Of a stretch of DNA of 64,000 bases, positions 4,633-64,000 are shown piece by piece. The stretch's first letter is position 1. Every line of letters begins with the position of its first letter. This stretch comes from Candidatus Moanibacter sp. (GTDB lineage: Bacteria > Verrucomicrobiota > Verrucomicrobiia > Opitutales > UBA2987), in contig CBDCEW010000093.1 in the NCBI GenBank assembly GCA_965215885.1, positions 1-64,000 of the forward strand, read 5' to 3'. The notes under the pieces were generated by a model, which did no database searches, was not told where the DNA came from, and worked only from the letters and a program-made list of their open reading frames with translations. Both the position numbers and the translations under genes were made by a program.

Positions 4633-4669
4633 TAATTGGTATGATATACGGTAAGTGCTGTAATCATGA

Positions 4670-10629: not shown

Positions 10630-11669
10630 TCTCCCCTTCCTCTGGCGTGTAGTCTCCCATTAATCCGAATAGTCCAAGCCATCGACTGTCCAAACCGTCC
10701 AACATAACTCCATCCATCACGGAAATATCCAGGGACTTCAGCCAGCCCGCGTAGTCCAAGTTCAGGACGGCGACTCCCAATGCCTTCGACAATGTGTTGT
10801 GTATCCATCGAAAATTAACCGGCAGAAGGGTAAGGTAAAGCTGGCCAATCGTCTGTCCCGTCTGCACTTCGTAAAATCCGGTCGATGCCTGTAATTCCTT
10901 CAGCATCTTCTTTAGCAGCGAGGGGCCCATCTCCGAAAAATCAAACGTGTTTGAGTAGAAGAGCTTGCGGGCAGATTCTTCATCTTTCAGACCCAACTCA
11001 CTCTGCACAGTTGGAAACATGCTGTTCAATCCGTAGGGAATGGGCCGGCAGATATCAACCTGCGTGCTGCTGAATATAAAGACGTTTGAGTTGGTCGGAG
11101 TAACCTCCAGAACAAGAGTGGGAAATTTTTCCTTCTTAAATTTTGTGTAATTTATCAGACCCGCTACCGCTCGCTATCGACCCCAACTCAAGCGTGTCCG
11201 GATAGATACCATACCCTATGATATCTTCCTGAATTTGATTAAACTCCTCCGTGCTCGCTCCACAGAACATCAGCTCTTTCTGGTTCTGCACCCCCTTCTC
11301 TTCCGAAAATTCGGTTCCGTCCACCGCATTGACTACAGCTACCGAATTCTTCGACGGATCGATTCGAAATTGAGAATTCAGCAGTTCCGCAAAGAAGTTA
11401 GGCTGCTTCGCCTTCGCCGGCGATTCCAGGGTCGTCCGGCGCAAAAAACGGCTCTTTGGGTAAACTCCGCAGCGTCCCTTCATGTAAGTGCCTGCCTTTT
11501 TCCATCTCAATCCATCCATGAATGCTCGCACGCTTTCCGAATCCTCTCCTCCCTGACACTCGTGAAGGCTCTCCACCACAAAAGGGGGTTCCAAACCCGA
11601 GGTAACTGCGGCAAGTATGCTGTATTCACTGAATTCAACAAATAATCCTTTTGATTTCGAAGAAAACAT
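10616..11669 (-). pseudogene. PilM-like cytoplasmic assembly protein, frameshifted near 11170
   Basis: ORF 11136..11669 continues after +1 nt as GLINYTKFKKEKFPTLVLEVTPTNSNVFIF..PIPYGLNSMFP into ORF 10616..11029. Actin-like-fold pattern and position upstream of a PilN-like gene. Confidence 0.65.
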
Positions 11670-43150: not shown

Positions 43151-44761
43151 CTATTCACTATCATCCAGCGAGCGGCCCTCCTCAAGCCCCCGGAGCTTTT
43201 CCTCGATGAGCTCAAGCCTTTGGACAAAGTCCCGATTTTCTTCCCTGAGTTTGGCGATCTCGGATTCTCTCTCGTCCAGCAACCGCAGGAGGGCCTGGAT
43301 GGAGGCGAGAGCGACCCCTGCTGTATCCACAGTTGTGATCGCTTTATCACTGCCACCGAGGCCAAACGCCTCGAAGAAATCCTGCGCCATCGGCCCGAGG
43401 TGCCGCACGCTGCCGTCCTCCTTCTTGTAATTCCAGGTCTCGATTGGGAGCGCGGCGAGCTTCTCGAGCAGTTCCCGGTAATCGATTTCCTCAAAATTCT
43501 CCTTCAGGTTCACATCGGAAGCATTCGTCCATGCCCCGCCCGGGGTGACGTGAGCACCGCTCGCCATCTCGAGAGGTTGGTCTGGAGTAGTGATGCCAAT
43601 GCCCACATCCCCGTCATTCGCCACGAACAGTGCGTCGCTCACACTGCCGTTGGCCGAATCGAGGGAATGGCCGTCCGGGATATCACCGGGATCGATCGCC
43701 GTGCTCTGCAGGGTGCCGTCGGGGAAGCGGAAGCCGAGCCTTTTAGAATGGACGGTACCGTCTGTCTCCAGGGTGCCGTTTTCATGAAGGGTGAGGGCGA
43801 GCCCGGGTTCGGCATCCTGCATATAAGTCTGAAACCAGAGATCGGAATCTGCCGATATATTACTCCGCCCATTCGGATAGGCGTCACCGCTCGATTGGTA
43901 GCGGCCATCCCATTCGTTTCCCGGGCCAACGAGCTGGAATGTGTAAACGAGGCCCGATGTTAGGAAAGGCGCCTCCTCAAAGTCCAAGTCGAGCAATTGC
44001 TCTTCTCCATTTATGATATTGAAAGTCACAGTATCCGAAAAGAGGAGGGGGCCTGTGGTTCCCTCGCCGAAATAGACGCGAATGTTGGTCAAGAGAAATT
44101 GGAGAGTCTCCACCGGGAATAGCTCGATACCAGTTAGTTTCCCATTCTGGCCGGCCGTAAAGGATTGCCAGACATTAGACATGTCGGTATCGGCGTCATC
44201 GGTCATCTGCGACTGATCGACAAATGCCTGACCGGCCAGTATCCTGGACGGCACAAATATTTCGAGTTCGGTGCTATCGGTCGTAACCGCGTTCAACGTG
44301 ATCTCCTCCGCTACGTTCTCGGCGATCATGGCGTAACCCACCGCCCCGATGCGCTGGTCGGGGGAAAGTTGCAAGAGCCCGTTGCTCGTCCCGTCATCGA
44401 ACCAGACGCGGATCGATACGTTATCGTTCTCCGTAAAGACCGATGCGGGGATGGAAGTCATATTCAGGATCGATTCATCGCCCAGGAAGACGGAAAACAG
44501 CCCGTTCAACACCTCTGATTGCACCGCATTCGCCGGGATTGCCTGCCCCACATCCGTCCCGTCGTTATGCCAGAGAACCGCTTCCGTGCCCAGGGTTACA
44601 TCCTTGACGAGCGAGAATCGAAACTCGCCCACACCGCCAAAATTCTCCCCGTCCACCACTACCCGGCCCTGGTAGGTGATGAGACTGGGAACCTGCGCCT
44701 CAACCGCAATCGGCCAGAGTAGAACCGATAAGCAGAAAGAGAAATAGACAGAGTATTTCAT
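43151..44761 (-). CDS. Fibre 1: secreted tail-fibre-like protein with YQGR N-domain and C-terminal peptidase S74-type intramolecular chaperone
   Basis: Signal peptide ending AQVP, then LITYQGR..F.F..LW..GLFSV.LG..RVWF..LSPDQRI, G.VGIG.T.P, and SD.NLKEN..LPI.TWNYK..HLGPMAQDF...F.L plus a coiled coil. Confidence 0.88.
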   Translation of the reverse strand: MKYSVYFSFCLSVLLWPIAVEAQVPSLITYQGRVVVDGENFGGVGEFRFSLVKDVTLGTEAVLWHNDGTDVGQAIPANAVQSEVLNGLFSVFLGDESILNMTSIPASVFTENDNVSIRVWFDDGTSNGLLQLSPDQRIGAVGYAMIAENVAEEITLNAVTTDSTELEIFVPSRILAGQAFVDQSQMTDDADTDMSNVWQSFTAGQNGKLTGIELFPVETLQFLLTNIRVYFGEGTTGPLLFSDTVTFNIINGEEQLLDLDFEEAPFLTSGLVYTFQLVGPGNEWDGRYQSSGDAYPNGRSNISADSDLWFQTYMQDAEPGLALTLHENGTLETDGTVHSKRLGFRFPDGTLQSTAIDPGDIPDGHSLDSANGSVSDALFVANDGDVGIGITTPDQPLEMASGAHVTPGGAWTNASDVNLKENFEEIDYRELLEKLAALPIETWNYKKEDGSVRHLGPMAQDFFEAFGLGGSDKAITTVDTAGVALASIQALLRLLDERESEIAKLREENRDFVQRLELIEEKLRGLEEGRSLDDSE

Positions 44762-45227
44762 ATGAGAGACCGCTCATCCTGTCAGATTGTGCCTCTCCCG
44801 TCAGCAGAAATTTTCGCCTTCTAACGGGGTTTACAACTTCCCACGTAGCCGAGCCAGCAACGGCGCGGAAAATGCAACTCGTTCAATCCGCCTCTTATAC
44901 AGAGTTGGCTACCTCCATACCGAAAAGCTCCCTCTTTCCGCTACAGATAGTGCTGCGAAAGAAAACACCCCACACAATGCTTGTCATTGCGAGGAAGAAT
45001 GACGAAGCAATCCAGGTACTCGACCTTCCGTAGTCCTTCCGCCAACCTGGATTGCGTAACCGCACCGGCAACGGCGCGGAAACCCCTCGCCCATTCTCCG
45101 TTTCGCCGTCTCTCCGTTTCTTCCTCTTCCCCCATCCATTGCTCTCTCCGCCTCTTGTGCAGAGGCGGCTACTAATCCCTATGAAAGACGACCTGGCACA
45201 CTTCGATTCAGGCGGAAACCAGAGACG

Positions 45228-48200
45228 CTAAACGCTACTAAAAGATCCATCACTGAGAGGATCAAAGTTCTCATCGAAACAACCCACAAGTTTTCCCGTG
45301 CCAAAGCCTGCATCATGTGTGCCGTCCAATAAGGTCGTTGCTATATTGGCGCCGCCGCTCGAATCCACAAATATTGAATTGCTGCTCCCCTTGATGCGAC
45401 TGCCGAAGATATTCGCGTTTCCACCATCACAGTTTACGCCCGTTCCATTCGTATCGGAAACAACGATATCACTATCAGTAATGGTGGCCGCACCGGACGA
45501 AATGAGGACACCGTTATTTGCGCTACCGCCATTCGATACCGTGATAAAAACATCTTTAAGGACCACGAGACCCGTATTATTCAGGATAACCCCAGTCGCC
45601 GGGTTTGAGCCGCCCCCATCACCTTGTGCGTCTATATCGGAGTCCTGAAACGTGGCCGTCGCACCATCAATCTCTACGGCTGTGGGTCCATCGCCACTGG
45701 CGCTGACCGTGACTTTACAAAAGACCGGATTAGCGCCGCTTTCATTGGCTTGAACGCTCACAGCGACGGGAGTACCGTTTGCGAGGTCGGAGAATATCTC
45801 TACTTTATATATCGAAGGGGAGGTCGAATCGATTATCAAGGCTCTACCACCTCCGGTATTGGATACGGTCAAGAAGCGTAACTCTGAGTTCGATGCCCCA
45901 GTATTCAATATCGTGGTACCCGTGCCGGTATTACTGCCGGTGATAATCGTAATCCCAATCCCCGACCCCTCGATATCGACATAGTTTTTCATGCTCAAGG
46001 TGCTTGTTCCCAGGTCAAAAATTCCCGGCTCTATCTTCAGGAGATAGGGAGTCGAGCTGCCGGCCGAAATGCCGGCCAGCGCCGCGAGCAAGGCCGTCCC
46101 GTTTGCCGTATTGCTTCCAACCGGGCTGACCACGACCGTCTGCACCAAGTGAGCCGAGCTATCCCCGTCATGAACGGAGACATCAACTCCGTCGACCAAT
46201 CCCACCGGCCCGATATCGCCATTGCCGTCGATGACGATATTGTCGGCATCAATCGAGAAATCGCCGTTACCCGAGTCCACATCGATCGCAAAATTTCCAC
46301 CGCTCGTAAGGGAGCCGTCGGCCAGGACTGTTGATGCCGAGCCCGCCGTAAAGCTTTTCGCCGTGACGTCGCCGCTATTATTCACGACGAATTTGGCAGT
46401 CCCCGCGACTTCCAACTCCATGAGATTAGGCGAACTCCCGCTAGTCTCGTTTAAATGCGCCAAGGGCGTTGCGGCGGTCGAAATACTCTGAGCCGATCCC
46501 GGCACGACCTGGACATAGTCGCTAAGCCCGCCTCCCCCGGTCGCGTCCGCATGATCGTGGGTGGCGCTGGTAAAGTCCGCGATCGTTGGCTTGCCCAAGG
46601 TCTTGTTTGTCAAGGTCTGCGAATCGCTCGTGCCGACGAAGTTGCCGGTCACACCGTGCACACCGGAGCCGGCACCGGCACCGGCATGAGCGGACACATC
46701 GACCCCGTCCACCGTGCCGGCCAAAGTTAGGCTTCCCGCCAGATTGACAGAGAAATTGTTCGCCACGACCACAAAATCCTCAATTGAGGCATCGCCCCCC
46801 GCCACATCGATGGTAAATGCGGAGCTGTTCGATTTGGTGATGCCGTTTGCATCAAACGTCGTGGAGGAAAAACCTGCCGTATAACTGGTAGCGATCACAT
46901 TCCCGTCATTTTCAACGACAAATCTGTTTGATGGACCAACTTCCAGCTGGATCAGGTTGGGCGTGTTGCCTCCGTCATTCTCTCTGATATGAATCAAAGA
47001 TGTGGCGGCGCTGTTGATATTCTACACTGCACCCGGAACGATCTCCACGAATTCGCTGCCGGAATTGAGAGATACCCCACCGACATTCGTTAAGTTGAAT
47101 CCGTTCAGATCCAAATCGCCGCTGAAACTTCCAGTGCCGTTTACTGATAACCCGTCTGAATATACTATGCCACCGACTTCGAGATCGCCATCCGGGCTCA
47201 AAAGAGTCATACGTCGACGCAAAATTCCAGCGTTGTCTCTTACCCAGAAGGTCAGTGTTGAGGCCTCAAGATCTGGGTCCACTTATCGTGGCGACGGACG
47301 AAATCCGCCCAATGTCTTCAATCACACCATTGCTGTCCTCCACCTGAAAGAGGATACCGGTGCCGATCTGATCTTCTCCGTTACCTCCGGCGATTGTGTG
47401 GGTTACTGTGACCACGTCCGTGTTATCGCCCGACATCGAATCTTCCTCAGTAACACCTAACGTTCCCGAAACCGTCGTGTTTGCGTTGGCATTTATTGTC
47501 GAATCGGAGCTGTTCAGGTTAATGTCACCGTTAAGAGCATTGAGGTTCACATCCCGGTCCGAGTTGAGCGCAAGGTCACTGGATCCCCCCGTCGCCGAAA
47601 CGCTTACGGGTCCGTTACCCGTAATATTGCTTCCGACTCCGGTAATGTCGTTTCCCCCCAAATTGAGATCCCCACTCATCGTGTCGCCATCCAGATTGGC
47701 ATAGCGGTCATCGACGTCGACGGTATCGAGGTCGCCCTGATCGACCGTCCCCGTCCTTGATATTGTCGCTCAGGATCGTCTCCGAGGCGATCTTGTCGCC
47801 CGTGACGGCATCATCCGCGAGTTGATCGGTATCGACGGACCCGTCGGCAAGAAAGTCCGCCCCGAAGGCACCTATCGCGTCCAGGTTCTCATCGATACAA
47901 CTGTGGCACGGAAAAAGCGCTCCCACCGAGAGGGCCTTCAAACTGCGAGTTGATCCCCACAACATTTGCAGTGTTGTTGATTGAATTCATGTCGCCCACC
48001 ATGCGGCTGTTTCGAATGGTCGCGGTGCCATTGTTCACAACTTCGATACCGACAGATTTTGTGCCCATAGCAACCGCCTCTACCTGATCGACGAAAATAG
48101 AGGCGTCATTAATCCAGATACCAAAAATTCTATTAACTGTATTATCGCCCGACACCTCGATACTGATTCCAAAGAGGTCCGCCGTGGCAGAATTCGTGAG

Positions 48201-49172
48201 AATTACCCCAAAGGCATCGTTTCCTAAGTCAGCTTCTAAGTCTATAGCTACATCAGTAAGGTCAAACCTTCCTCCATTAGATGAAAATCCAGCAGGAGAA
48301 ACTCCGTCCACAACTTCGACGTTAACATGAAGCGCGAAAACTTCCTGTCCTGAAGCGGTGCGGAATCCGTTAAGGCCGCCCGCATTGACAACCTTCAGAC
48401 TTCGGAAGGCACAATTATCTACTGCCTGGGTTTCGGTCGTCTTTCCTATAACATAGATCCCCCGCCCTACGATTCTGGTAAGATCTCTTCCGGAGCCCTC
48501 AATATGAACATGTGACTTCAATGGTATGTGCCCATTTACTCCCAAATCGAATGTTCCCGGCTCCAGCTTCACCAGATAGGGCTTTGAAGAACTATTGTCC
48601 GTAATTCCATTCAACGCCGCGACAAGGGCGTCACCATTTTGCTCTACCGAGCCGCCCTCCACAGGTCCGACGAAGATCGTCGTAATACCCGGATTCAGGA
48701 CCTCCTGTGCCACCATCGCGAAGCCCACCGATGTGATGCGCTGGTCCGGCGATAGTTGCTCGAAGGCATTGGCCTGATCGCGGAACCAGACGCGCAAATC
48801 GACCTCGCTGTTATCGACAAAGATGCCGGGGGAAATGGGGACCATGAAGTGCGGCGAACTGCTATCGCCGAGGCCCACCGAGTAGAGGCCGTTTGTCACG
48901 GCAAGCGATACAAAACCATTGGGTTCGCCGTTTGTCCCCGAACTGTTCCCATTGTGGCTCCAGAGGACAGCTCCAGTACCATCTACGAGCACGAACTTAA
49001 AATCGCCGCTCCCGTCGAAGTTGACGCCGTTCTTAACGACACGTCCCTGGACGTTGATAATTTCCGGGACAGCCGCTCGGGCCGTGGAGCCCAAAGCGAA
49101 AGCGACAAGAATGAGAGAGATGAATCCACTCTTACGATATTTCATCATTAACTTTCCTTTTCTGTTTATCAA
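45228..49172 (-). pseudogene. Fibre 2: YQGR N-domain, beta-helix, shared stalk, second beta-helix (~1310 codons), broken by three frameshifts and one in-frame TAG
   Basis: ORFs 47889..49172, 47708..47965, 47266..47679, 47022..47282 and 45228..46997 are collinear with the paralogs. Breaks near 47910, 47750 and 47280. TAG at 47022-47024 where the paralog has CAG. Confidence 0.85.
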
Positions 49173-49335
49173 TATGCGAAACGCATGGTGCGAAGAGTCA
49201 ATGTGTTCTCCAACACCCAGATAGTGAGATCAGATCTGACCTATACACGGGCGAGATGCCTGGAGCAATTCAAAACGTAGTGGGTTACTGCGTAGCCGCG
49301 TCAGCAACGGCGCGGAACAGGGCCACTCAGGTAAG

Positions 49336-49551
49336 ACGCTCCAAGCCCGGAGATTCATAGAAAAGCCAGCCACAAAGAGGCACAAAAACCGCAAAAAAGA
49401 AAGCGAGATGATTCCTCATACACCAACTCTTTCATTACTAACCATTTATCACCCGCCCTTAAGAAGCCGTCTGAAATGATGGGGTTTTAAGCTCTTGATC
49501 ACCGCGAAGGAACAGTGGGATGGCTACGGCATCAGCGGGCAAATTCTTTGC
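49336..49551. repeat. ~215-bp direct repeat (family C), copy 1
   Basis: Shares CCAACTCTTTCATTACTAACCATTTATCACCCGCCCTTAAGAAGCCGT and its flanks with 63589..63800. The 3' end equals the family B end. Confidence 0.8.
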
Positions 49552-50457
49552 ATTTTCTTATCCAGGGTGGGCTTCCTAATCGTCCTCCGCTGATCGGAGC
49601 TTCACTTTTGCTTTCCTCACTGGATGCTGGGCTCTGATTGCTAAACGCTCAGGCCCTCCCTTCGATCCTGCCGAGCGGGACAAGGACAAGACGGACACCG
49701 TCATCTTATCCGCCTTTCGAAAAGCTTCCGCTTTCCGCTACTGATAGGGCGCAGATTTCTCAATAATCGTAGCGGAAAGCGGAAGCTTTTCGTATTACTA
49801 TCCGTCAGAACTTAGTTTTTTGAACACGTCTATTCTGTCAGTGAAGTATAAGAGGCTGGTAATCAAAGTATTGCGATCGACCCGTCGCCGCGTAGATCTG
49901 CCGAGGCGAGCAAGGGTCGTGACGAGGTTACCCAAGGGAAGTAGGAGTTTCCTTCTTCATTCGCGTTAATTTGCGGTTCTCTTCTTTTTCCCGCTCAGCG
50001 GGATTGCGGCTATGCTGTGCTAGGCTTTCTGCAATCCATTCATTGAGAGCGGTCTGCGAGCGATCCGTATCTGTCTGGCGATTCTCCTATTTCGAGCCCG
50101 TTCCATCGGGGGATAAACCCGCTTCCTGGCCTGAGCCTGCCGAAGGCCTACAATCCCTCGCGGGGTGGTCGTTCTGAATTCCTTAATACCGCCAGGCTGT
50201 AGGAGAGGCTTCATGCCTCGATCCGTATCCCCTTTTTTCATTGCTGAAGGATGGAGGAAAATTGAACGTGCGCCGGAGCGCCCAGCCTGCCTCGGCGAAT
50301 CACGCAGTGCGAAGACGGGTCCCACCCTGCCGTACGGCAAGGTTGTCAGCGGTGGACCGGGCCCTCCGGGCACGGTGGTCTCACGCCCGATTCGAAAAGC
50401 TCCCGCTTTCCGCTACATACGTCTATTCGCCCTAGGAAAATTCGTAGCGGAAAGCGG

Positions 50458-50557
50458 CCCAGGAGATGTCGGTGGTGCAATCCCCCCGCATGCCACGAAA
50501 GCCCCCGGATGGCTATTTTTTCGGCGAATTCGAAGGGCAAAACCCGACAGATTCCTA
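50458..50557. mobile_element. ~98-bp MITE-like element (family S), copy 3
   Basis: AGGAGATGTCGGTGGTG...CCGACAGATTCCTA. The terminal CTA is the stop codon of fibre 3. Confidence 0.7.
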
Positions 50558-52493
50558 AGGGTTCTCCGCCGAAAGTGAATCATCTTCAAATTCCAGAGTC
50601 ACTGAGACATCCTCGACGACAGATTGCGCGCAATTGCCACAGTCGATCTCGATATCGAGACGTTGCCCGCTGAGGCAGAAGAAGGAGTTGGTAGTATCAG
50701 AGCCATCGTTAACTCCCGCACCAAGTGTAACCGTCATATTGGTATCGCTTCCATTGAGTCTGGCAATTATGTCTGCCGATTCCGAAAAGCCGGGCGGCGT
50801 TTCTGCATGGACGTACATCTTCGTTACTTCGAGATCAGAATTGCAAACCATGAAGTGAAGTTCGCTGAATTCTGGAAATTGTATTCCCGGACCCGCAAAG
50901 ATAGAGGACCCTGCTTCCGCCTGTCCATCCAACACAAAGCTCTCGGTAAAGACGGCCTTATGAAAATGCTGATCGAGGTTGATGCCGTCGACCAATCCCA
51001 CCGGACTGATGTCGCCGTTGCCGTCGATACCGATATTCATGGCATTTACCGTAAAATCATTATTACCGGATCCCGCATCGACTGAGAAATTCCCGCCGCT
51101 CGTGAGGGAGCCATCGGCAAAGACAGTTGTGGCACTTCCCGCTGTAAAACTGTTCGCCATGACGTTGCCCTGATTATCGACTGCGAACTTATCCGTCCCC
51201 CCAACTTCCAACTCCATTAGATTAGGCGTACTTCCGCTCGTTTCGTTTAAATGCCCCAGGGTCGTTGCCGCGCTCGCAATCGTCTGGGCCGATCCGGGTA
51301 CGACGAGGACCAAACCGCTGAGTACGCCCCCGCCCGAGTTGCCCGTATGACTGTGCGTGGCATTGGAGAAGTCCCCGATCGTTGGCGTCGTCAGGGTCTT
51401 GTTGGTCAGGGTCTGGGAATCGCTGTTACCGACAACGCTGCCGGTGACTCCGTGCACTCCGGAACCGGCGGCGGCGTGGTCCGATAGGTTCACTCCGTCC
51501 ACAGTGCTCACGTTGATGATCTTGTTGGTTCCCACGTCGAAGTTGCCGCTCATTGCGTCTGAACCGTCCCGTTCGAGATACTGGAGGTGGTCGTCGTCAG
51601 CGTTGCCGGTGAGCCCGCCGTGATCGACCGGTGTCCCACCCAGGCCGCCACCGTGGTCATGTCCCTCTATGTCCACCCCATCGACCAATCCCACCGGACT
51701 GATATCGCCGTTGCCGTCGATGCTGATATTCATCGCATCAATCGTAAATTCACCGTTCCCCGAATCGACATCGACTGCCAGATCCCCGCTCGTCGACAGC
51801 GAGCCGTCGGCCAGAACGGTCGATGCGAAACCCGCCGTAAAACTCGTCGCGGTGACACCCCCGGCATTTTTGACCACGAACTTATCGATACCCCCGACTT
51901 CCACTTCGATGAAGTTCGGCGAACTTGGGCTGTTCTCGTTCAAATAAATAACGGAAGTTGCCGCGCTCGTAATGTCCTGGGCTGATCCGGGTACGATCCG
52001 CACGGAACCGCCACCGCTCATGTTGTCGGTATGACTGTGGGTAGCGTTCGAGAAGTCCGCGATCGTCGGCGCCGTCAGGGTCTTGTTTTTCAGGGTCTGG
52101 CTCCCGTCCGTTCCGACGAAGCTTCCCGCCACAAAGTGCACACCGGAACCGGCGGCAGCGTGGGCCGACACGTTCACACCGTCCACCGTGCCCACGTTGG
52201 TCACATTGTTGTCTTTCAGGTCCAGGTCGCCGTCAAACGTCGCCTCTCCGGCGCTCAATGTGCCGCTGATGGTTACGTTCCCTGATGCATCGATCTCGAA
52301 ATTGTCAGCCGTGACGATCAAGTCTTCTCCCACCGCGTCGCCCCCGGCCACATCGATCGTAAAGGCCGAACTGGTCGATTTTGTTATGCCGTCTTCCCCG
52401 AAGAAGGTCGTTGAGGAAAATCCTGCCGTGTAGCTCGTCGCCACGACATCACCGTCATTGTCAACGATAAACCGGGCCGATGGCCCCACTTCA

Positions 52494-54387
52494 CAGGGTA
52501 AAAGGATTCCAGGAAGCAACTAGCTGATAAGCAAGAAGATAAAAAAAGAGCTAAACAAACCCGAGGGAATCAGTCATGTTAAGATGGGATGAAAGACAAA
52601 AAATCTTACCAACTGAATCCTTCGATAGATCGTTTAACTCTGCGTCTGGTCCTGCCCGAAGAGCAGGAGCGATTCAATGATCTATTGAAACAACATCATT
52701 ATTTACACAGTGCGGGCAGCGCAGGAGAGACCCTGCGCTATGTGGCGCAGATCGACGGGCAATGGATGGGCCTGCTCTTGTGGGGGGCCGCATCCTACCG
52801 GCTGAAGGATCGAGACGAATGGATCGGGTGGGACGGGGCGCAACGGCATGCACGATTGAAACTGGTAGTACAGAACCGGCGTTTTCTGATTTTGCCCGGG
52901 GTGGATCTTGCAAATTTGGCCTCCAAGACGTTGGGTATGTGCCTGAGAGTCTTAGCCGATCACTGGCAGGAGGCTTTTGGCTATCGTCCCTTAGTAGCGG
53001 AAACGTTCGTGGACCCACAGATTCACCGGGGCACTTGCTACGAAGCGAGCGGGTGGACGCCCTTGGGCTTGAGCGCGGGATATGGCCGCCAACGCGAAGA
53101 TTTCTATCAACGCCATGAGCGTCCCAAGCAGATCTGGGTCAAACCCCTCAAGGCTAATGCCCTTGAGCTTTTGCGCGCTTCAGGGCCATTGCCCGCGGCA
53201 CAGAGCCAGGCGCTCAATGAAACCGATAACTCCCATGCGGTCTGCCTCAAAGTGGAACAGATGAGCAGCCTGTGGGAACGCTTCAATCAGATAGAAGACT
53301 TCCGTCGTAAAGCGGGCCTTAGATATCGGCTCGCCACGGTCCTGAGCATGATTGTGCTCGGCACGATGTGCGGCAAACAGACCCTCAAGGGCATCGTGCG
53401 CCTGGCCCATCATCTCAATCAAGCCCAATTGCGCGCCTTACGCTCCTGGAAAAACCCCAAAACAGGCCGCTATAAGGCCCCTTGCTATGATGTCTTCTAT
53501 CGGGTCTTGCAAAACGTAAAGGCCGAGCTCTTCGATAAAACCCTCACCGAATTCATCTGCTTACAAGACGGCTGTTTGCCCCGCGATATTGCCGTCGACG
53601 GCAAGACCCTCAAAGGCACAAACACCGAAGAATCAAAGGCTCTGCACCTGGTGGCCGCAGTCGATCACCAAAGCGCTCAAACCTTAGCCCAAGTCGCTAC
53701 CGCCGATAAATCCAACGAGATCACCGCCGCCCAGACTCTCTTGCGAAAGATGCCCATTTTGGACGGCTCCACCTTCACCTTCGACGCCATGCATAATCAA
53801 AAAGAAACTGCCCACATCGTCGTCGAAGAACTCAGTGCTGACTATGTTATTCAAATTAAAGACAATCAGCCCAACATGCATCAATACGCTCAGAATCTCT
53901 TCAGCTCCACCCCCTTTTTCTCCACCAACCCGTGGACAATGACCATGGGCGACTCGAAATACGTCAAATAGCAACCCATTCTCTAAGCGCTCCCTCTGCC
54001 GGCCTGCCCCATGCCCGCCAGTTCGCCTGTGTGCAACGCACCTTCCATTATCCAAACAAAGCTGAACCTTCCTCTGAACGCTCTTACTACGTAAGCAGTC
54101 TCGATCCCGCCGATTTGAGCCCTCAACAGTTCCTCTCGAAAATTCGCAACCATTGCTCGATCGAAAATAAAAATCATTACCCCAGGGATCGCTTCTTCGA
54201 TGAAGATCGATGTATGATCCGTAATCATAACGCAGCCAGAATTCTTGCTGCATGCAGGCAACTGGTTCTCAGCCTCAAGTCTTCCATGGGCGCTGAATCC
54301 ACTCCCGCACTCTGTGATGATTTCGTCTTTAACTTACATAAGGCCATCAATATCATCACCTAATGCTCCGAGAATCAAAATACCGTG
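52494..54387 (+). mobile_element. ISAs1-like insertion sequence, copy 3, 10-bp target duplication CCCCACTTCA
   Basis: Duplication at 52484-52493 and 54388-54397. 1894-bp body. Confidence 0.97.
52589..54363 (+). CDS. DUF4338-fused ISAs1-family transposase (two ORFs, -1 frameshift)
   Basis: Same as copies 1 and 2 except one substitution just after the slippery run (STKP to STNP in ORF1). Confidence 0.9.
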
Positions 54388-55779
54388 CCCCACTTCAAGC
54401 TCGATCAGTTTGGGCGCGTTGCCCCCGTCATTCTCTCTGAGGTGAATCAGGGAAGTTGCGGCGCTGCTGATACTCTGCACCCCACCGGGAACGAGTTTCG
54501 CGAATTCACCCCCCGCGTTCTGGCTCAGGCCGCCCACATCCGTCAAATTGAACCCGTTCAGATCCACGTTGCCCCCGAAATCTCCGCCCCCTGAAACTTC
54601 CAGCCCTCCGCTCACAAACAGATCTCCTTCCGGGCCCGAAAGTGTCATCCGCCGACGCAGAATTCCACCGTTGTCTCTTACAAGGAATTCGATCTCGGAT
54701 CCCTCCAGATTCGGTTCATTCCCTAAACCAATTGTCCCTACGGCTCCGACATCTTCAATTACACCATTCCCGTCCTCCACTTGAAAGAGGATGCCCGATC
54801 CAATCAGATCTCCTCCCGTATTCCCGGAGATCGTGTGAGTCAGGGTAAGCACGTTGGTCGTATCGCCCAACAGCGTATCCTCCACCGTAACACCCAATGT
54901 TCCCGTAATTCGAGTGTTTGCCTTGGCCATTATCGTCGAATCCGAGGCGTTGAGATTGATATCGCCGTTGAGTGCATTCAGGTTGATATCCCGGTCCGAA
55001 TTTAGATCGAGGTCATTGGTTCCACCTTCCGCCGATACGCTCAATGGACCATCCGCCGCGATACCGGGACCGACACTGTTGATATTGTATCCCCCCATAT
55101 CGATGGGACCAGCCATCGTGTCCCCATCCCGATTGACATATCGAGTATCGACATCGCCTGAATCGAGCTCGTCGAGATCGACGGATCCGTTCACGATGTT
55201 GTTGCCCGTGATCGTCTCAGAGCCGATCTTGTCGCCCGTTACGGCTCCATCCACTAATTGAGCGGTATCTACCGACCCGTCGGCCAGGTTATCCACCTCC
55301 CTCGCCACAAGCACCCGGGCAGAAGGAGCGATGCGCTGATCGGGAGAGAGTTGCTGGCTGTTGAACCAGAAACGGAGATAGCGGATCTCGTGATCCAACA
55401 GGACGGAGTCCGGTATCGGGTCCATGTTCGTGAGGCCCGTATCGCCCAGCAGAACCGAGACCAGTCCGTTGCTAACCTGGCAGGATATACCCATGTCCGG
55501 CACGTCCGCATTGAGCATTGAATTGCTCCAGAGAATCTGGCTGCTGTCGTCGATGATGGCGAAGCGGCAGTCGCCCGGGCCGTCCACGTTCACACCGTTG
55601 ACTACTACCCGAGCCTGGTAGTTGAAGACGTTATCGCCCGGTGACGATGCCTCTCCTATGCCCGTAAATAACAGCACCGCCATCGCGCTTATGAACAGCG
55701 CACCGATCGAATTCGGTCGGGTTCGATTCTTAATTATTCGGCTTCTCATACTCGAAGTGTCAAAGTGCTGTTCCGTTAG

Positions 55780-58700
55780 TTACAGCGCCACGAGATTTTC
55801 CGCCGCGCCGGATTCGAATTCAAAATCCAAAGTCACGGAAATATTATCTGCACTTTCGGCCACGGGGTCCAATAATAGCCTGATACCGATTCGATCCCCC
55901 GCCGAGACCGAAAACGATGTACTATCGCTGAAAACCACCCCTTGTGCGGTAACGTTCACAGTCATCAGAGTGGGACTTCCGTTCTTCATGACGGTCACGT
56001 TCAATCCAGATGATCCATCTAGCGTTGCCGATTCTACGTAAACAGACATCTTCTTAACAGAACCGGCCGAAAGGCATATCATGTAGTGTTCCTCGCTTCG
56101 GTTTTCCGTCTGAATTCCGGGCCCCACGAAACTGGGGATGTTTCCACTTAAGGATCCCTCAACCACGAAACTCTCGGTAGAGCGGGACTTGTGAACATGT
56201 TGATCGACGTCGATCCCGTCGACCAATCCCACTGGACTGATGTCACCGTTGCCGTCGATCCCGATGTTCATGGCATTGACCGTAAACGTGTTGTTTCCTG
56301 AACCCGCATCGACTGAGAAATTTCCACCGCTCATGAGGGAACCGTCCGCGAAGACGGTTGTTGCATTACCCTCTATGAAACTGGTCGCCATGACATTGCC
56401 CTGATTGTCGACTACGAACTGATCCGTCCCCCCAACTTCCAGTTCCATAAGATTGGGGGCATTTCCGCTCGTCTCGTTCAGATGCACCAGGGTCGTTGCG
56501 GCGGTCGAAACTGTCTGGGCAGAACCGGGCACGATCCGGACCAAACCGCTGAGTACGCCGCCGCCTGCGTTATTCGTATGACCGTGCGTGGCGTTGGAGA
56601 AGTCCGCGATCGTCGGGGTCGTCAAGTTCTTGTTCGTCAGGGTCTGTGAGTCGCTTGTGCCGACGACGCTGCCGGTGACCCCATGCACATCGGAGCCGGC
56701 GGCGGTATGAGCGGGCACATCGACTCCGTCCACCGTGCCCACGTTGATGATCTTGTTGGTTCCAACATCGAAGTTGCCGCTCATTGCGTCTGACCCGTCA
56801 CGTTCGAGATACTGCATGTGATCGTCGTCACCGTTGCCGGAGAGCTCGCCGTGATCGACCTGTGACCCATTGCCGCCGCCGCCGTGGTCATGTCCCGATA
56901 CGTCCACCCCATCAACCGATCCCACCGGGCTGATATCGCCGTTGCCGTCGATGCCGATATTCATCGCATCAATCGTAAATTCGCCGTTCCCCGAATCCAC
57001 ATCGATTACCAGATCCCCGCTCGATGCAAGCGAGCCGTCGGCCAGTACAGTCGATGCGAATCCAGCCGTAAAACTTGTCGCGGTGACACCCCCGGCATTA
57101 TCGACCACGAATTTAGCGGTCCCCCCGACTTCCACCTCGATGAGGTTCGGCGAACTTCCGCTGTTCTCGTTCAGATGAACAACGGAAGTTGCAGCGCTCG
57201 TAATGTCCTGGGCCGATCCGGGTACGACACCCACAAAACCGCTAAGGCCAAGCGCGCCCCCGCTCGGGTTGTCGGTATGACTGTGGGTAGCGTTCGAGAA
57301 GTCCGTCATCTTCGGCTTCGTAAGGGTCTTGTCGGTTAGGGTCTGGCTGCCTTCAGTGCCGACGATGCTTCCCGTGACCCCGTGCACACCGGAGCCGGCG
57401 GAAGCGTGAAGGAACACATCCACACCGTCAACCGTGCCCACGTTGGTCACGTTGTTGTTTCTCAGGTTTAAGTCTCCGTTAAACGTCGCCTCTCCGGCGC
57501 TCAATGTGCCGCTGATGTTTACGTTCCCTGATCCATCGATCGAAATGTTGTCCGCCATCACGATCAAGTCCTCTCCGGCCGCATTGCCCCCGGCCACATC
57601 GATCGTAAAGGCCGAACTGGTTGATTTCGTTATGCCCTCTTCCCCGAAGGTCGTTGAAGAAAATCCCGCCGTGTAGCTCGTCGCCACGACATCCCCGTCA
57701 TTATCGACGATAAACCGGTCCGATGGCCCTACTTCAAGCTCGATCAGGTTGGGGGTGTTGGCCCCGTCATTCTCTCTGAGGTGAATCAGGGAAGTTGCCG
57801 CGCTGTTGATATTCTGTACGGCGCCGGGAACCAGTATTACAAAATCACCTCCCGCACTGAGGCTGAGGACGCCCACTTCCGTCAAATTGAACCCGTTCAG
57901 ATCCACGTCGCCCCCGAAATCTCCGTCGCGTGATACATCCAGCTGTCCACTCACAAACAGATCTCCTTCCGGACCCGAAAGTGTCATCCGCCGACGCAGA
58001 ATTCCATCATTGTCTCTTACAAGGAATTCCATCTCGGAATCATCCAGATTCGGTTCATTCCCAATACCGATTGTCCCAATTGCTCCCACATCTTCAATTA
58101 CACCGTTCCCGTCCTCGACTTGAAAGAGGATGCCCGATCCAATCAGATTTCCTCCCGTATTCCCGGAGATCGTGTGTGTCAGCGTCAGCACATCGGTCGT
58201 ATCGCCCAACAGCGTATCCTCCACCGTAACACCCAATGTTCCCGAAATCTGAGTGTTGGCGTTGGCCACGATCGTCGAATCCGAGGCGTTGAGATTGATA
58301 TCGCCGTTGAGTGCATTCAGGTTGATATCCCGGTCCGAGTTCAGAGCGAGGTCATTGGTTGCACCCTCGGCCGATACGCTCAATGGACCCTCCGCCGAAA
58401 TATTGGGGCCGACACCGTTGATATTGTTTCCGCCCATATCGATGGGGCCGCCCATCGTGTCCCCATCCCGATTGACATATTGAGTATCGACATCGCCCGT
58501 ATCGAGGTCGTCCAGATCGACCGAGCCGTCCACGATATTGTTGCCTGTGATCGTTTCCATGGCGATCTTGTCGCCTGTAACCGCGCCGTCAGCGAGTTGA
58601 TCGGTGTCTATCGACCCATCCCGCCAGGTTCTCCACCTCCCTCGCCACCAGCGCCCGGGCAGTTGGAGCGATGCGTTGATCAGGGGTGAGTTGAGCGTTG

Positions 58701-59117
58701 CCGCCCCCCCACATCATCGTCGAACCAGACCCGCAGAAAGAGAATCTCCTCGCCATTGAAAGTGCCGTCCGGAATCACGCCCATGTTTGCGATGCCAGTG
58801 TCTCCAAGCAGCACGGAGAACAGTCCCTTCGTCACAGTCAGACTTACCGGGTCCGTCGGGATGCTGCTGACATCAAGCCCGGAATTGCTCCATAGCACAG
58901 CACCCGGTTCATTGTGGATGGCGAACCGAAAGAGTCCCTGCCCGTCGAAGTTCACTCCGTTGACCGCTACGCGGCCCTGGTAATTGAGGACGTTACTGCC
59001 CGCCTGCGGTGACGCTGCCTCTCCTATGCACGTGAACAGCAGCGCCGCCATCGCGCTTATGAACAGCGCACCGATCGAATTCGATTGGGTTCGATTTTTG
59101 ATTATCCAGCTCCTCAT
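55780..59117 (-). pseudogene. Fibre 4: YQGR N-domain, stalk, jelly-roll-like head (1111 aa when restored), with two +1 G frameshifts
   Basis: G7 at 58704-58710 vs G6 in fibre 5 (62191-62196), and an extra G near 58621. ORFs 58680..59117 and 55780..58560 are otherwise collinear with fibre 5. Confidence 0.85.
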
Positions 59118-59147
59118 ACTCGAAGTGTCAAAGTGCTGTTCTGTTCG

Positions 59148-62100
59148 TTACTGCGATACGATATTTTCCGCCGGGCCGGATTCGAATTGAAATTCCAAAG
59201 TCACGGAAATATCATTGACGAAAATTCCGAAGTTGGACTTGGAAAATTGGATGCTGATTCGATCACCCGCATCCACGGAAAATGATGAGGTAGAGGTGAA
59301 AACGGTCGGAGCCGACGAGACCGAAACAGCCATTGGAGTGTTTCCACCCATCTTATTTACGGTCACGCTCACGAAATCGCCTTCCCCAAAGCTTCCCCCC
59401 TCTGCTCGAACCTTCATCTTCTTAACGGTACCGGCCGAAGTGCATATCATGAAGTGTTCCTCGATAGCATTTTCAAACTGAATCCCCGGCCCTGCGTAAC
59501 CATCGTCCACGGTGCCCTCAACCACGAAGCTCTCGGTAGAGGTGGATCCGTGAAAATGCTGATCGACGTCGATGCTGTCGACCAGTCCCACTGGACTGAT
59601 GTCGCCGTTTCCGTCGACCGCGATATTCATGGCATTGACCGTAAACCCGTTACTGCCTGAGTTCGCATCGACTGCAAAATTTCCGCCGCTCGTAAGGGAA
59701 CCGTCGGCCAGGACGGTAGTAGCATTACCCGCTATAAAACTCGTCGCCATGACATTGCCCTGATTGTCGACCACGAATTGATTCGTACCTCCAACTTCCA
59801 GCTCCATCAGATTGGGCGTATTTCCGCTCGTCTCGTTTAAATGCACCAGGGTCGTGCCGGCAGTCGAAACGGTCTGGGCCGATCCGGGCACGATCTGGAC
59901 GTAATCGCTGAGCGATCCCCCGCTTGCGTTATTCGTATGACCATGGGTAGCGCCGGAGAAGTCCCCGATCGTCGGCGTGGTCAAGGTCTTGTTCGTCAGC
60001 GTCTGGGAATCGCTGTTACCGACGACGCTGCCGGTCACCCCATGCACACCGGAGCCGGCGGGGATTTGAGCGGACACGTCGACTCCGTCCACCGTGTCCA
60101 CATTATTGATACTATTGCCTCCAACATCGAAATTACCGCTCATCATGTCCGAGCCGTCCCGTTCCAGATACTGGGTGTGGTCGTCGTCAGCGTTGCCGGA
60201 GAGCCCGCCGTGATCGATCTGCGACCCACTACCGCCGCCGTGATCATGTCCCGATAGGTCCACCTCATCAACCAATCCCACCGGACTGATATCGCCGTTG
60301 CCGTCGATGCCGATATTCATCGCATCAATCGTAAATTCGCCGTTCCCCGAATTCGCATCGATAGCAAGATCCCCGCTCGTCGACAGCGAGCCGTCGGCCA
60401 GTACAGTCGATGCGAAACCCGCCCTAAAACTCGTCGCGGTGACACCACCGGCATTGTCGACCACGAATTTATCGCTACCCCCGACCTCCACTTCAATGAG
60501 TTTCGGTGAACTTTGGCTGTTCTCGTTCAGATGAATAACGGAAGTCGCCTTTTCGAATGGGGCGCTCGTGACACCACCGGCATTGTCGACCACGAATTTA
60601 TCGCTACCCCCGACCTCCACTTCAATGAGTTTCGGTGAACTTTGGCTGTTCTCGTTCAGATGAATAACGGAAGTCGCCGCGCTCGTAATGTCCTGGGCCG
60701 ATCCGGGTACCACACTCACGAAATTCCCAGAGCTAAGCGCCCCCCCGCTCATGTTGTCGGTATGACTGTGGGTAGCTCTCGAGAAGTCCGTGATCGTCGG
60801 CGTCGTCAGGGTCTTGTTTTTCAGGTTCTGGCTGCCGTCGGTGCTGACGATGCTTCCCGTCGTCACTCCATGCACACCCGAGCTGGCAATGGCGTGAAGG
60901 AACACATTCACACCGTCCACCGTTCCCACGTTGGTCACATTGTTGTTTTTCAGGTCCAGGTTGCCGTCAAACGTCGCCTCTCCGGCGCTCAATGTGCCGC
61001 TGATGTTTAGGTTCCCTGATGCATCGATCTCAAAATTGTCCGCCATGACGATCAAGTCCTCTCCTGCCATGTCGCCCCCGGCCACATCGATCGTAAAGGC
61101 CGTACTGGTCGATTTTGTTATGCCGTCTTCCCCGAAGGTCGTTGAGGAAAATCCTGCCGTGTAGCTCGTCGCCACGACATCCCCGTCATTTTCTACTATA
61201 ACCCGGTCCGATGACCCCACTTCAAGCTCGATCAGATTGGGCGTGTTGCCCCCGTCATTCTCACTGAGGTGAATCAGGGATGTTGCCGCACTGCTGATAC
61301 TCTGCACCCCACCGGGAACGAGCTTCGCGAATTCTCCTCCCGCGTTCAGGCTCAGGCCGCCCACTCCCGTCAAATTGAACCCGTTCAGACCCACGTTGCC
61401 CCCGAAACCTCCGCCGCCTGAAACATCCAGCCGCCCGCTCACAGACAGATCTCCTTCCAGGCCCGAAAGTGTCATCCGCCGACGCAGAATCCCACTACTG
61501 TCTCTTACAAGGAATTCCATCTCGGAATTATCCAGATCCGGTTCATTCCCTGCACCGATCGTCCCTATGGCCCCAACATCTTTAATTGCTCCGTTCCCGT
61601 CCTCCACTTGAAAGAGGATGCCCGATCCAATCAGATCTCCTCCCATATTCCCGGAGATCGTGTGGGTCAGCGTCAGCACATTGGTCGTATCGCCCAATAG
61701 CGTATCCTCCACCGCAACGCCCAATGTTCCAGCAATCTGAGTGTTTGCCTTGGCCAATATCGTCGAATCCGAGGCGTTGAGATTGATATCGCCGTTGAGT
61801 GCATTCAGATTGATATCTCGGTCCGAGTTTAGAGCGAGGTCATTGGATCCACCTTCGGCCGATATGCTCAATGGACCCTCCGCCGAAATCTCGGGGCCGA
61901 CACCGTTAATATTGTATCCCCCCATATCGATGGGGCCGGCCATGGTGTCGCCATCCTGATTGACATAGCGGTCATCGACATCAACGGTATCGAGGTCGCC
62001 CTGATCGACCGAGCCGTCCACAATGTTGTTGCCCGTGATCGTTTCCATCGCGATCTTGTCGCCTGTAACTGCGCCGTCAGCGAGTTGATCGGTGCCCACC

Positions 62101-62603
62101 GAACCCTCCGCCAGGTTCTCCACCTCCCTCGCCACCAGCGCCCGGGCAGCTGGTGCGATGCGCTGATCGGGTCCGAGTTGAGCGTTGCCGCCCCCCACAT
62201 TATCGTCGAACCAGACCCGCAGAAAGAGAATCTCCTCGCCATTGAAAGCGCCGTCCGGGATCGCGCCCATGTTCGTGATGCCCGTGTCTCCAAGCAAAAC
62301 TGAGAACAGGCCCTTCGTCACAGTCAGGCTGACCGGATCCGTCGGGAAGGTGCCTCCATCGAACCCGGAATTGCTCCAGAGCACAACACCCGGTTCATTG
62401 AGGATGGCGAATCGGAAGAGTCCTTGTCCCTCGAAGTTGCTCCCGTCACTACTGACGGCGCGCCCCCGGTAGGCGACGACGTTCGCCGGGTCCGGTTGCG
62501 GCATCAATTCCTGCACCGTCACAATGGACGCAATCAAGGTGCTTAGCAGAACTGCGCCTGGAATCGTTCGGCGAGTTCGATCTTTCCTAACTAAGCTTCT
62601 CAT
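59148..62603 (-). CDS. Fibre 5: intact 1151-aa secreted tail-fibre-like protein
   Basis: Signal region, AYRGR N-domain, LADGAVTGDKI repeats, RYVN.DGDTM.G, TLTNKTL repeats, four HxH motifs, DDDH.QYL, and a variable C-terminal head. Confidence 0.88.
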   Translation of the reverse strand: MRSLVRKDRTRRTIPGAVLLSTLIASIVTVQELMPQPDPANVVAYRGRAVSSDGSNFEGQGLFRFAILNEPGVVLWSNSGFDGGTFPTDPVSLTVTKGLFSVLLGDTGITNMGAIPDGAFNGEEILFLRVWFDDNVGGGNAQLGPDQRIAPAARALVAREVENLAEGSVGTDQLADGAVTGDKIAMETITGNNIVDGSVDQGDLDTVDVDDRYVNQDGDTMAGPIDMGGYNINGVGPEISAEGPLSISAEGGSNDLALNSDRDINLNALNGDINLNASDSTILAKANTQIAGTLGVAVEDTLLGDTTNVLTLTHTISGNMGGDLIGSGILFQVEDGNGAIKDVGAIGTIGAGNEPDLDNSEMEFLVRDSSGILRRRMTLSGLEGDLSVSGRLDVSGGGGFGGNVGLNGFNLTGVGGLSLNAGGEFAKLVPGGVQSISSAATSLIHLSENDGGNTPNLIELEVGSSDRVIVENDGDVVATSYTAGFSSTTFGEDGITKSTSTAFTIDVAGGDMAGEDLIVMADNFEIDASGNLNISGTLSAGEATFDGNLDLKNNNVTNVGTVDGVNVFLHAIASSGVHGVTTGSIVSTDGSQNLKNKTLTTPTITDFSRATHSHTDNMSGGALSSGNFVSVVPGSAQDITSAATSVIHLNENSQSSPKLIEVEVGGSDKFVVDNAGGVTSAPFEKATSVIHLNENSQSSPKLIEVEVGGSDKFVVDNAGGVTATSFRAGFASTVLADGSLSTSGDLAIDANSGNGEFTIDAMNIGIDGNGDISPVGLVDEVDLSGHDHGGGSGSQIDHGGLSGNADDDHTQYLERDGSDMMSGNFDVGGNSINNVDTVDGVDVSAQIPAGSGVHGVTGSVVGNSDSQTLTNKTLTTPTIGDFSGATHGHTNNASGGSLSDYVQIVPGSAQTVSTAGTTLVHLNETSGNTPNLMELEVGGTNQFVVDNQGNVMATSFIAGNATTVLADGSLTSGGNFAVDANSGSNGFTVNAMNIAVDGNGDISPVGLVDSIDVDQHFHGSTSTESFVVEGTVDDGYAGPGIQFENAIEEHFMICTSAGTVKKMKVRAEGGSFGEGDFVSVTVNKMGGNTPMAVSVSSAPTVFTSTSSFSVDAGDRISIQFSKSNFGIFVNDISVTLEFQFESGPAENIVSQ
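60439..60686. repeat. In-frame tandem duplication (period 129 bp) inside fibre 5
   Basis: ATSVIHLNENSQSSPKLIEVEVGGSDKFVVDNAGGVT occurs twice with identical DNA. It is single-copy in the paralogs. Confidence 0.95.
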
Positions 62604-62905
62604 CCTCGTAACGTGAAAGTGCCGTTGTTTCAGAATCAGGTCAGGTATCTGCCGGATCTCGGGACCGGCGAATTAGCGAAGAAATAGTTATCCTGCTATT
62701 TCAATTAATCGATTCTACTAGCCCACTCCGGTAGGTAGCGCAACATCAAAGCAGTGAGAATGGATTCTCATCCGGGCCTTTGCAGACCCGACACCATCGA
62801 GAAGATTTTCCCCACTATTCAATCCTGAGAAGAGTAGGTCGCAAAGAGGCACAAAAATCGCAGAAAATGTCGTATCGTAACGAAGAGGCGAATTAAGATA
62901 GTTCA

Positions 62906-63139
62906 ATGCCAATAGTATTTCAGAAGGACGGTTACAGGTTCTTCTTCTACAGCAACGAACACAGGCCGATTCACGTTCACGTACGCTACGGCGGTGGAGA
63001 AGCCGTTTTCTACGTCGAAAGTGCCGTGGAGTTACGGGAATCCCATGGCCTAAAACTCAAGGAGCTATCAAGAGCCCAAAGGCTTGCAAAAGAGCACCAA
63101 CAGCTTATTATTCAAAAGTGGCATGAACACATTGATTGA
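62906..63139 (+). CDS. DUF4160 family protein (putative toxin-antitoxin component)
   Basis: MP......GYRFFFYSNEH.P.HVHV...W..H, 77 aa. Confidence 0.88.
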   Translation: MPIVFQKDGYRFFFYSNEHRPIHVHVRYGGGEAVFYVESAVELRESHGLKLKELSRAQRLAKEHQQLIIQKWHEHID

Positions 63140-63377
63140 CACTGCACGCACTGCCTCAGTCCGCGATGGGCAGGTAATCATCTCTATGTGCAGCGGGGCT
63201 GAACTTCGGTTTCCAGTGGCGGAGAATCCCCGTCTGGCAAAGGGAACGCCCAAGCAGTTGAACAATCTCGAGCTTTCACCGTTCGGAATTCATTGGCCTG
63301 ATCTCGATGAGGATCTCTCATTTCGAGGGATAGCTAACGGAGACTACGGGCAACGGAGAGGCCAACGTTCCGACTAG
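63123..63377 (+). CDS. DUF2442 family protein (putative toxin-antitoxin partner)
   Basis: PRL...T..QL.N.ELS..GIHWPDLDEDLS. Overlaps the DUF4160 gene. Confidence 0.88.
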   Translation: MNTLIDTARTASVRDGQVIISMCSGAELRFPVAENPRLAKGTPKQLNNLELSPFGIHWPDLDEDLSFRGIANGDYGQRRGQRSD

Positions 63378-63588
63378 ATGAGCCCACCTGACGTGCCGAG
63401 TTAAGCCTCTGTTTGAAAGTCCGAATCAGTGCACCCCTTTTGTTCCGCATTGTCAGAGGTGGACCGGGACGGCTCTTTCGAAAAGCCCGGATGTTCATAG
63501 AAGTGCCAGCCGTCTTGGCCCCGCCGTACAGCTTCCCTCTTCGTTCCGCTAAAAGCGCAACACAAAGTCGGAATGTGCTACTCAGCCA

Positions 63589-63800
63589 ACGCTCCAAGCC
63601 CATTTCATGAGTGCCAGCCACAAAAAGGCACAAAAAGCGCAAAAAAGGAATGTGAAATCATTCCTGAACGCCAACTCTTTCATTACTAACCATTTATCAC
63701 CCGCCCTTAAGAAGCCGTTTGAAATGATAGGGGTTTTAAACTCCTGATCACCGCCAAGGAACAGTGGGATGGCTACCGCATCAGCCGGCTAATTCTTTGC
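63589..63800. repeat. ~212-bp direct repeat (family C), copy 2
   Basis: Homologous to 49336..49551. Confidence 0.8.
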
Positions 63801-64000
63801 GATTCCTTTACCACCGGGGGCTTCCCCATCGTCTCGCGCTGAGCGGGACTTCCGCCTTCCTCAGCATCTTGCGGCTTCCTCCCCCATCCGTTACCCTTCT
63901 TTAATCCGTAGCCAGAATCCTCCCGTCCCATCGTCACGAACAATCCTGGCTTCCTCTCTTCTCTTTGCGTCTTTGCGACTTTGCGTGAGAAATCTTTCAC

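Follow-up and report, generated by a model that had tools for sequence, protein, structure and literature searches.

The first 64,000 nucleotides (64 kb) of contig CBDCEW010000093.1 (C93, 126.8 kb) from the verrucomicrobium Candidatus Moanibacter sp. (assembly GCA_965215885.1), hereafter the window, carry five minus-strand genes for large fibre-like proteins, termed A (62603-59148), B (59117-55780), C (55749-50555), D (49145-45228) and E (44761-43151). An earlier note on the window had described an array of five secreted, mosaic adhesins; it correctly placed the five co-oriented genes in a verrucomicrobial host, but the array continues past the window end, where C93 numbering continues that of the window, with a sixth fibre gene F and a partner gene P that the note missed. 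The order on the minus strand is P, F, an insertion sequence (IS), A, B, C, D, E. Gaps of 30 bp with a near-identical leader separate A, B and C, the remaining gaps measure 467 to 3,917 bp, and the stretch upstream of A (62604-64000, minus strand) is non-coding up to the window end, beyond which the array resumes. The genome of 6.36 Mb is 90% complete, a figure that bounds all genome-wide negatives given here. A genome search found the base domain of the fibres six times, each time at the array, the partner motif once, and no copy of the stalks or tips outside the array. The fibres are very probably secreted proteins of a kind resembling the mosaic adhesive trimers (MATs) of Bdellovibrio.

After repair, F, A, B, C, D and E encode proteins of 1131, 1151, 1111, 1096, 1304 and 536 amino acids. 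Each has a signal-like N-terminus, as the earlier note had it, with a hydrophobic stretch whose 13-residue Kyte-Doolittle mean is 2.1-2.6 in the five window genes (hydropathy only). Fibre A is intact and consists of base, a stalk with His-x-His (HxH) and DDDHTQYL motifs, and a TNF/C1q-like tip. Its paralogues are B, read through single-base insertions at 58704 and 58620, and C, which is stop-free once an IS is removed. Fibre D, read through breaks near 47915, 47749 and 47275 and a stop at 47024, comprises base, a beta-helix-like domain, stalk and a second beta-helix-like tip. Fibre E is intact and has a base, a short body, a beta-helix cap and an S74 chaperone/peptidase domain with SDxxxK. Fibre F (C93 69913 to ~66520, minus strand; about 1131 amino acids via one break near 66620-66632) has a base, a beta-rich stalk and a cement-protein-like tip. 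The partner P (C93 71633-70566, minus strand; 355 amino acids) consists of a signal-like N-terminus, a 60-residue 'GG' motif with three pseudo-repeats, an immunoglobulin-like (Ig-like) middle recognized by eye, a TSP3-like repeat and a C-terminal domain shared with other proteins.

The base domain of about 125 amino acids directly follows the signal in all six fibres; in the window genes it is 35-47% identical to that of E. The earlier note had defined it by motifs running from YQGR to PDQRI; the domain and PDQRI hold for all five window genes, but YQGR is exact only in E and B, with YRGR in A, YQAR in C and VQGR in D. Nor is the base invariant, as the words "one common base" would have it, for among A, B and C identity over the first 100 columns is 37-65%, versus 77-90% in the stalk. 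The base of E is predicted to form an Ig-like beta-sandwich with seven main strands (predicted local distance difference test, pLDDT, 87). A Foldseek comparison, proposed in the earlier note, returned nothing for this model at an E-value of 0.001, and another fold search gave generic Ig-like matches only (best Z 6.7), which point to no specific family and are no demonstration of a new fold. What is matched instead, weakly, is the NCBIfam model NF053851 (Bdello_MAT_N): by E, D and F among the six fibres (E-values 1e-4 to 4e-4, 20-22 bits) and by 37 of 42 scanned base homologues out of 69 found, the best reaching 4.6e-10 over positions 5-148 of 162. Going by these profile matches, the base is remotely homologous to the N-domain of Bdellovibrio MATs but is not a member of the NF053851 model. 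Sequence searches of the PDB gave relatives neither for the base domain nor for the P motif, no Pfam family covers the base, and an Atlas search led to unnamed clusters only. An exact scan of the genome collection with the published bd2133 primer found nothing, and Bdellovibrio is absent among the named proteins in the best 120 of 2,374 matches to a divergent-base profile. As for the YQGR motif that the earlier note had tentatively ascribed to Bdellovibrio MATs, YQG appears in neither the main text nor the readable supplement of PMC10769870. The family of the base domain is large, with 4,626 representatives (clusters at 50% identity; E-value 0.001). It is present in eight of eight genomes of the same family and 17 of 250 of the phylum, and a divergent form extends to Chloroflexota and Acidobacteriota.

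Beyond the base, the fibres show four kinds of tip in six genes: S74 (E), beta-helix-like (D), TNF/C1q-like (A, B and C) and cement-like (F). The three unrelated C-terminal kinds seen earlier among the five window genes are confirmed, with the paralogues A, B and C (67-75% identical) sharing one. Tips diverge faster than stalks, identity among the three tips being 35-61%. The stalk motifs were reported slightly too broadly: HxH is present in A-D, and A, B and C also have DDDH.QYL, but TLTNKTL is found in its exact form once in each of A, C and D, and B has variants only. The stalks of A, B and C match PHROG tail-fibre families (E-values 1e-8 to 2e-6). The tip shared by A, B and C is predicted to form a TNF/C1q-type jelly roll (pLDDT 78), with the phage 7-7-1 tail fibre (9RKV) as top fold match (Z 10.3, root mean square deviation 3.4, 113 aligned), followed by 4-1BBL and BclA; its Foldseek list is filled by C1q, TNF and BclA domains. 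S74 is found in gene E only (PF13884, E-value 3.7e-12), and the best PDB match of E is the MAT Bd2133 (8OND, E-value 1.6e-4). Searching the PDB by sequence found nothing for A or for the distal part of D, whose putative helix-like domains were called from the sequence pattern alone and have no Pfam or PDB match; the order base-helix-stalk-helix is intact in the G006 protein P0115. The tip of F is weakly cement-like, its orthologue P0075 matching PF09956 with an E-value of 0.0024, under the cut-off. Mosaicism, to judge from the domain arrangements, is clearest across genomes: P0115 has a base and helices of the D type with a tip of the A type, and in P0220 the stalk is a mixture of F-like and B-like blocks.

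The partner P recurs with the fibres. A P homologue lies directly upstream in seven of seven fibre-type loci fetched from the family, and across the phylum the constant part of the partners is a Gly-rich motif of about 60 amino acids right behind the signal and nothing else. A survey of 250 genomes of the phylum with a partner profile gave 20 positive, including 14 of the 17 with a base domain. This survey is partly circular because the seeds came from those genomes, and reliance is therefore placed on genomes found by the motif alone and on loci outside the seeds. In the former, a divergent base-domain gene adjoins the motif in four of six. The 78 loci outside the profile seeds yielded 38 motif matches, all on the fibre strand, and shuffled open reading frames (ORFs) yielded none. 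Of the 45 independent loci whose flanks are full (700 bases or more past each end), 33 have the motif, in 21 cases within 400 bases and in most others one gene away. The match at L069 has no base-domain neighbour. That at L073 was rejected as an internal chance match, and the gene adjoining the base gene at L015 is PEP-CTERM-like and no clear partner. Nine loci (L081, L083, L085, L113, L125, L132, L149, L152 and L154) have a conserved secreted protein of about 300 amino acids just upstream of the partner and after the fibre; by eye it has the look of a SurA/PrsA N-terminal foldase, and one tested copy has no NCBIfam match. At L052 the gene after the fibre encodes a true PrsA-like isomerase.

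Partner length varies between about 150 and more than 1200 amino acids, and many partners have a long spacer between the motif and the C-terminal domain. A profile of that C-terminal domain built from other genomes finds ten ORFs in this genome (G000), P first and all ten ending at most seven residues from the stop, and no fibre. The nine others that end in this domain of about 70 amino acids include C72:6273-7259, C79:51108-57239, C41:22222-24081, C85:56047-58512 and C97:105634-106854, with four more. In P the domain has no Pfam or NCBIfam match; its distribution suggests that it may be a sorting or mooring domain, a verrucomicrobial sorting signal.

The stoichiometry of the pairing is suggested by nature. 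P0070 naturally joins one motif to three base domains, and in P0071 and P0073 three bases stand in tandem. These proteins suggested a 1:3 complex, and docking was therefore run at that ratio. In P0071, P0073 and P0225 the three tandem C-terminal bases stand behind a passenger, which includes a matrixin-like peptidase in P0225 and a repeat region of 1,580 amino acids in P0073; all three are possible single-chain pseudo-trimers using the same tether. The P motif itself repeats every 19-20 residues (SGGPYEI, SSGGPYTI, DGTPIYTV). With three copies of the A base (62115-62489, minus strand) and one P motif, the predicted complex had docking scores of 0.83, 0.81 and 0.83, the best control scoring 0.01, and the runs share at least 90% of contacts. 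Of solved complexes, 116 of 157 attain the docking mark, as do 2 of 215 mismatched pairs; these figures apply only roughly here. A single partner chain is predicted to contact the same surface of all three bases, at residues 5-14, 90-96 and 103-115, which correspond to the YQGR, R.WF and L.PDQRI motifs (the YRGR, LRVWF and QLGPDQRI strands of A). The pLDDT of the partner is 71-74 in the complex versus 30 with an unrelated protein, and the motif appears to fold on binding in these models. P thus appears likely to bind the base. The earlier note had cast the base as an anchor or export module; it looks instead like a socket for a separate tether.

These observations can be assembled into a chain of events. 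The fibres and P would reach the periplasm by Sec. Each fibre would consist of a signal for Sec export, a base of Ig-like fold, a modular stalk rich in beta structure with putative His-x-His metal sites, and a variable binding tip. The fibres, whose tips are assigned to folds that form trimers, would trimerize in the cell, E by means of its S74 chaperone, as established S74 biology suggests. Having no apparent sorting or membrane-anchor domain of their own, they would be supplied with one by P, whose 60-residue motif is predicted to fold on binding and to plug into the three-fold base of a single fibre trimer, with each subunit taking up one segment. The C-terminal domain of P, common to other secreted proteins of the genome, may then deliver or moor the complex at the surface. 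One tether serving six fibres would give varied adhesive tips for the surface the cell lives on, and by analogy to Bd2439 the tips may attach to glycans or proteins of a host or particle. As a complete chain of events, secreted homotrimeric fibres of MAT type moored through the single partner P are somewhat favoured.

Several observations weigh against this reading. The docking covers the base of fibre A only, and conservation in the columns of the predicted interface is not significantly above that of the remaining columns (p 0.11). The internal repeat of the motif gives a modest signal, reached by fractions of 0.0055 and 0.055 of 2000 column shuffles. No partner lies nearby in 12 of the 45 full-flank independent loci. 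The PorV family has no match in the genome, where its control was detected; SprA likewise has none, in a search in which no control was detected. As for kinship with MATs, the curated 60-bit cut-off of NF053851 is reached by no protein, the best local score being 22 bits and that of the best homologue 39.5 bits, and the homology is drawn from the NCBIfam model. Nothing at the locus indicates predation, or prey binding in particular. Six fetched family loci have the base joined to a DsbA-like thioredoxin and lack a nearby partner (L005:7639-8679, L008:7380-8408, L010:7503-8627, L011, L012 and L014), the PDQRI strand being degenerate, and in G002 and G004, which have no motif match, this fusion is the sole base form. 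The base is therefore not always a fibre socket. At least two of those six loci have a MauE/DoxX gene after the DsbA-fused base gene; no such fusion was found in G000.

Partners of this kind could also act in passing. P might bind the base trimer transiently as a trimerization template or export carrier, after which the fibres would be released or held otherwise. Such a role would suit a motif that appears to fold only on binding, a single P for six fibres and the frequency of foldase-like genes in these cassettes, and the docking model is blind to the difference between lasting and transient binding. It is nevertheless unlikely, since the range of partner sizes and the many long spacers suit a displayed tether, and E has an S74 chaperone of its own. 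A different alternative takes the base as a general clip for any passenger, many passengers being enzymes, phage or predator decoys or matrix spacers and not adhesins. Base homologues carry Kelch, FGE-sulfatase, SGNH, matrixin and DsbA domains, and no ligand is known for any local tip. This is improbable for the array at hand, however, where the folds of the six tips are non-catalytic and of kinds that binding tips are known to have (S74-capped helix, TNF/C1q, beta-helix-like and cement-like) and tip divergence outpaces that of the stalk. A moored set of adhesive fibres stays the preferred account.

As assembled, A, E and P are intact, B, D and F have single-base breaks, and C is interrupted by an ISAs1-like IS (52493-54386, plus strand) with a transposase at 52589-53971 and a 10-bp target duplication (52483-52492 and 54387-54396). 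The array might on this evidence be a decaying remnant in an IS-flooded genome, most of its fibres no longer made, and the fibre loci of G005 and G006 also have IS or frame breaks. Short-read contigs speak to this point; they come from four runs of one study, with at most three samples, possibly including the source, at depths of 2.5-5. In these contigs the extra base is missing at 47275, 47749 and 58620, and the codon at 47024 is a sense codon. As for 58704, the extra base is absent in one run, but two runs span the place without showing the gap, which favours decay. The break near 47915 shows no indel in the read tables and may lie outside their coverage; intact P0115 aligns across it at 50%. 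The end of F is backed by its intact orthologue P0075, aligned at 66% to the end. Comparison of 46 copies of one IS shows 20 indels in 85 kb. At that rate the array would be expected to have about six breaks, roughly the number seen. Most frameshifts would thus be assembly errors, as both the short-read contigs and the agreement with the IS-copy indel rate indicate. The IS in gene C is probably real: it is bounded by a target duplication, there is no further lesion in C, and in another assembly protein P0074 ends at the same junction. Decay is quite improbable as an account of the whole array, given these results, the lack of a second lesion in C and the intact state of P, A and E. In RNA runs, 0.05-0.09 of words were present, roughly what the IS part alone would give.

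Near-full IS copies number 46 for the ISAs1-like family and 105 for a second one, and this heavy load hints at a host-restricted life. ISAs1-like copies lie at window positions 8173-9555, 22538-23920 and 52589-53971, their transposase starting with a DruA-like domain (PF14236). Two further types of IS lie at 40599-42269 and 19728-21953. Gene A contains a 129-bp tandem duplication (60438-60568) that one short-read contig skips, either an artefact or a strain variant.

The array is flanked by mutS and an esterase gene on one side and by tmk, holB, a sugar kinase gene and exbB on the other. Five other genomes of the family have the cassette in this position, as judged by both flanks in G001 and G006 and by a single flank in G005, G007 and G008; it holds one or two fibre genes in them, versus six here. 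Matches to PHROG tail-fibre families and the S74 domain could be taken to mean that the array is the tail-fibre module of a prophage, tailocin or contractile injection system. The signal-like N-termini argue against such a module, and sheath and baseplate-J genes were not found genome-wide (controls gave signals in 3 of 14). The locus lies among housekeeping genes, is syntenic in the family and is not a prophage, an origin excluded by that synteny and those flanks. The tail module that the earlier note had asked to look for in the flanking sequence is absent from the flanks, which hold no sheath, baseplate, capsid or lysis genes, and this explanation is largely refuted and very improbable. Elsewhere in the window are genes for large secreted CARDB and RCC1-repeat proteins (1-8103, minus strand), of which the CARDB gene (4993-8103) adjoins an IS copy and has seemingly lost its start; two unannotated ORFs (10000-11669, minus strand) resembling PilM/PilN-type pilus-assembly proteins by eye, with no Pfam match; and a gene for a secreted ankyrin-repeat protein (25110-26285).

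Trimeric surface fibres are also formed by YadA-type trimeric autotransporter adhesins, and the cargo of type IX secretion consists of secreted proteins with C-terminal sorting domains. Unlike the former, the fibres show no YadA-type anchor domain in Pfam or NCBIfam scans of any fibre ORF. Unlike the latter, they come with no PorV-family gene that could be found and have the sorting-like domain on a separate partner. The closest resemblance is to the MATs of Bdellovibrio bacteriovorus, which are defined by an N-domain of about 130 amino acids (Caulton et al. 2024, PMC10769870). Common features are a signal peptide followed by a beta-rich domain of that size, S74 and non-S74 members, tips swapped on shared stalks, several copies per genome, and a TNF/C1q-like tip (A, B and C) as in Bd2439 and Bd2734. 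The earlier comparison with MATs is upheld by the remote N-domain homology, the match of E to Bd2133 and these tips, though not by membership at the curated cut-off; the fibres also differ in being clustered at one fixed locus, in having a dedicated partner gene and in giving no evidence of predation. Table S3 of PMC10769870 lists MATs outside Bdellovibrio, in other phyla, including one organism of the Planctomycetes-Verrucomicrobia-Chlamydiae group.

Phage fibres offer a second comparison. Like the S74 fibres and tailspikes of T5 (pb1) and K1F (endosialidase), the array has S74 with SDxxxK and stalk motifs matching PHROG tail-fibre families, and its predicted jelly-roll tip resembles that of the phage 7-7-1 fibre. 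In contrast to them, it is chromosomal, has signal-like N-termini and no virion genes, and carries an Ig-like base in place of the tail-attachment domain. The predicted A/B/C tip is also similar in fold to C1q/TNF-like trimeric heads (gC1q, 4-1BBL and the BclA C-terminal domain; Z 8-10), but sequence identity is 6-16% and the shared fold gives no ligand.

According to PMC10769870, the surface element bound by the MAT N-domain awaits identification. A search of the openly accessible literature found no described MAT anchor or fibre-partner pairing, and nothing relevant on a verrucomicrobial C-terminal sorting domain or on S74 fibres in Verrucomicrobia; in the parts available, a 2026 review (PMC13689555) names no anchor and PMC12750041 holds nothing relevant. 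The locus names a candidate for this surface-holding element, with a stoichiometry (one 60-residue motif to three bases) and contact strands, which makes the tether question testable with two small recombinant domains. There is perhaps an even chance that the arrangement is a widespread plug-and-socket form of surface display, in which a single-chain, pseudo-threefold tether grips the three-fold base of any passenger with a MAT-type N-domain and lends it its own sorting signal. Fibres and some enzymes would then be exported and moored in trans, and the same socket may hold Bdellovibrio MATs. A confirmed tether would explain many 'hypothetical' gene pairs because the base has 4,626 clusters in several phyla and no Pfam family. 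If six competing fibres do share one tether, the adhesive coat would be changeable without a change of anchor, and verrucomicrobia with no sign of predation would keep a repertoire of phage-like binding tips.

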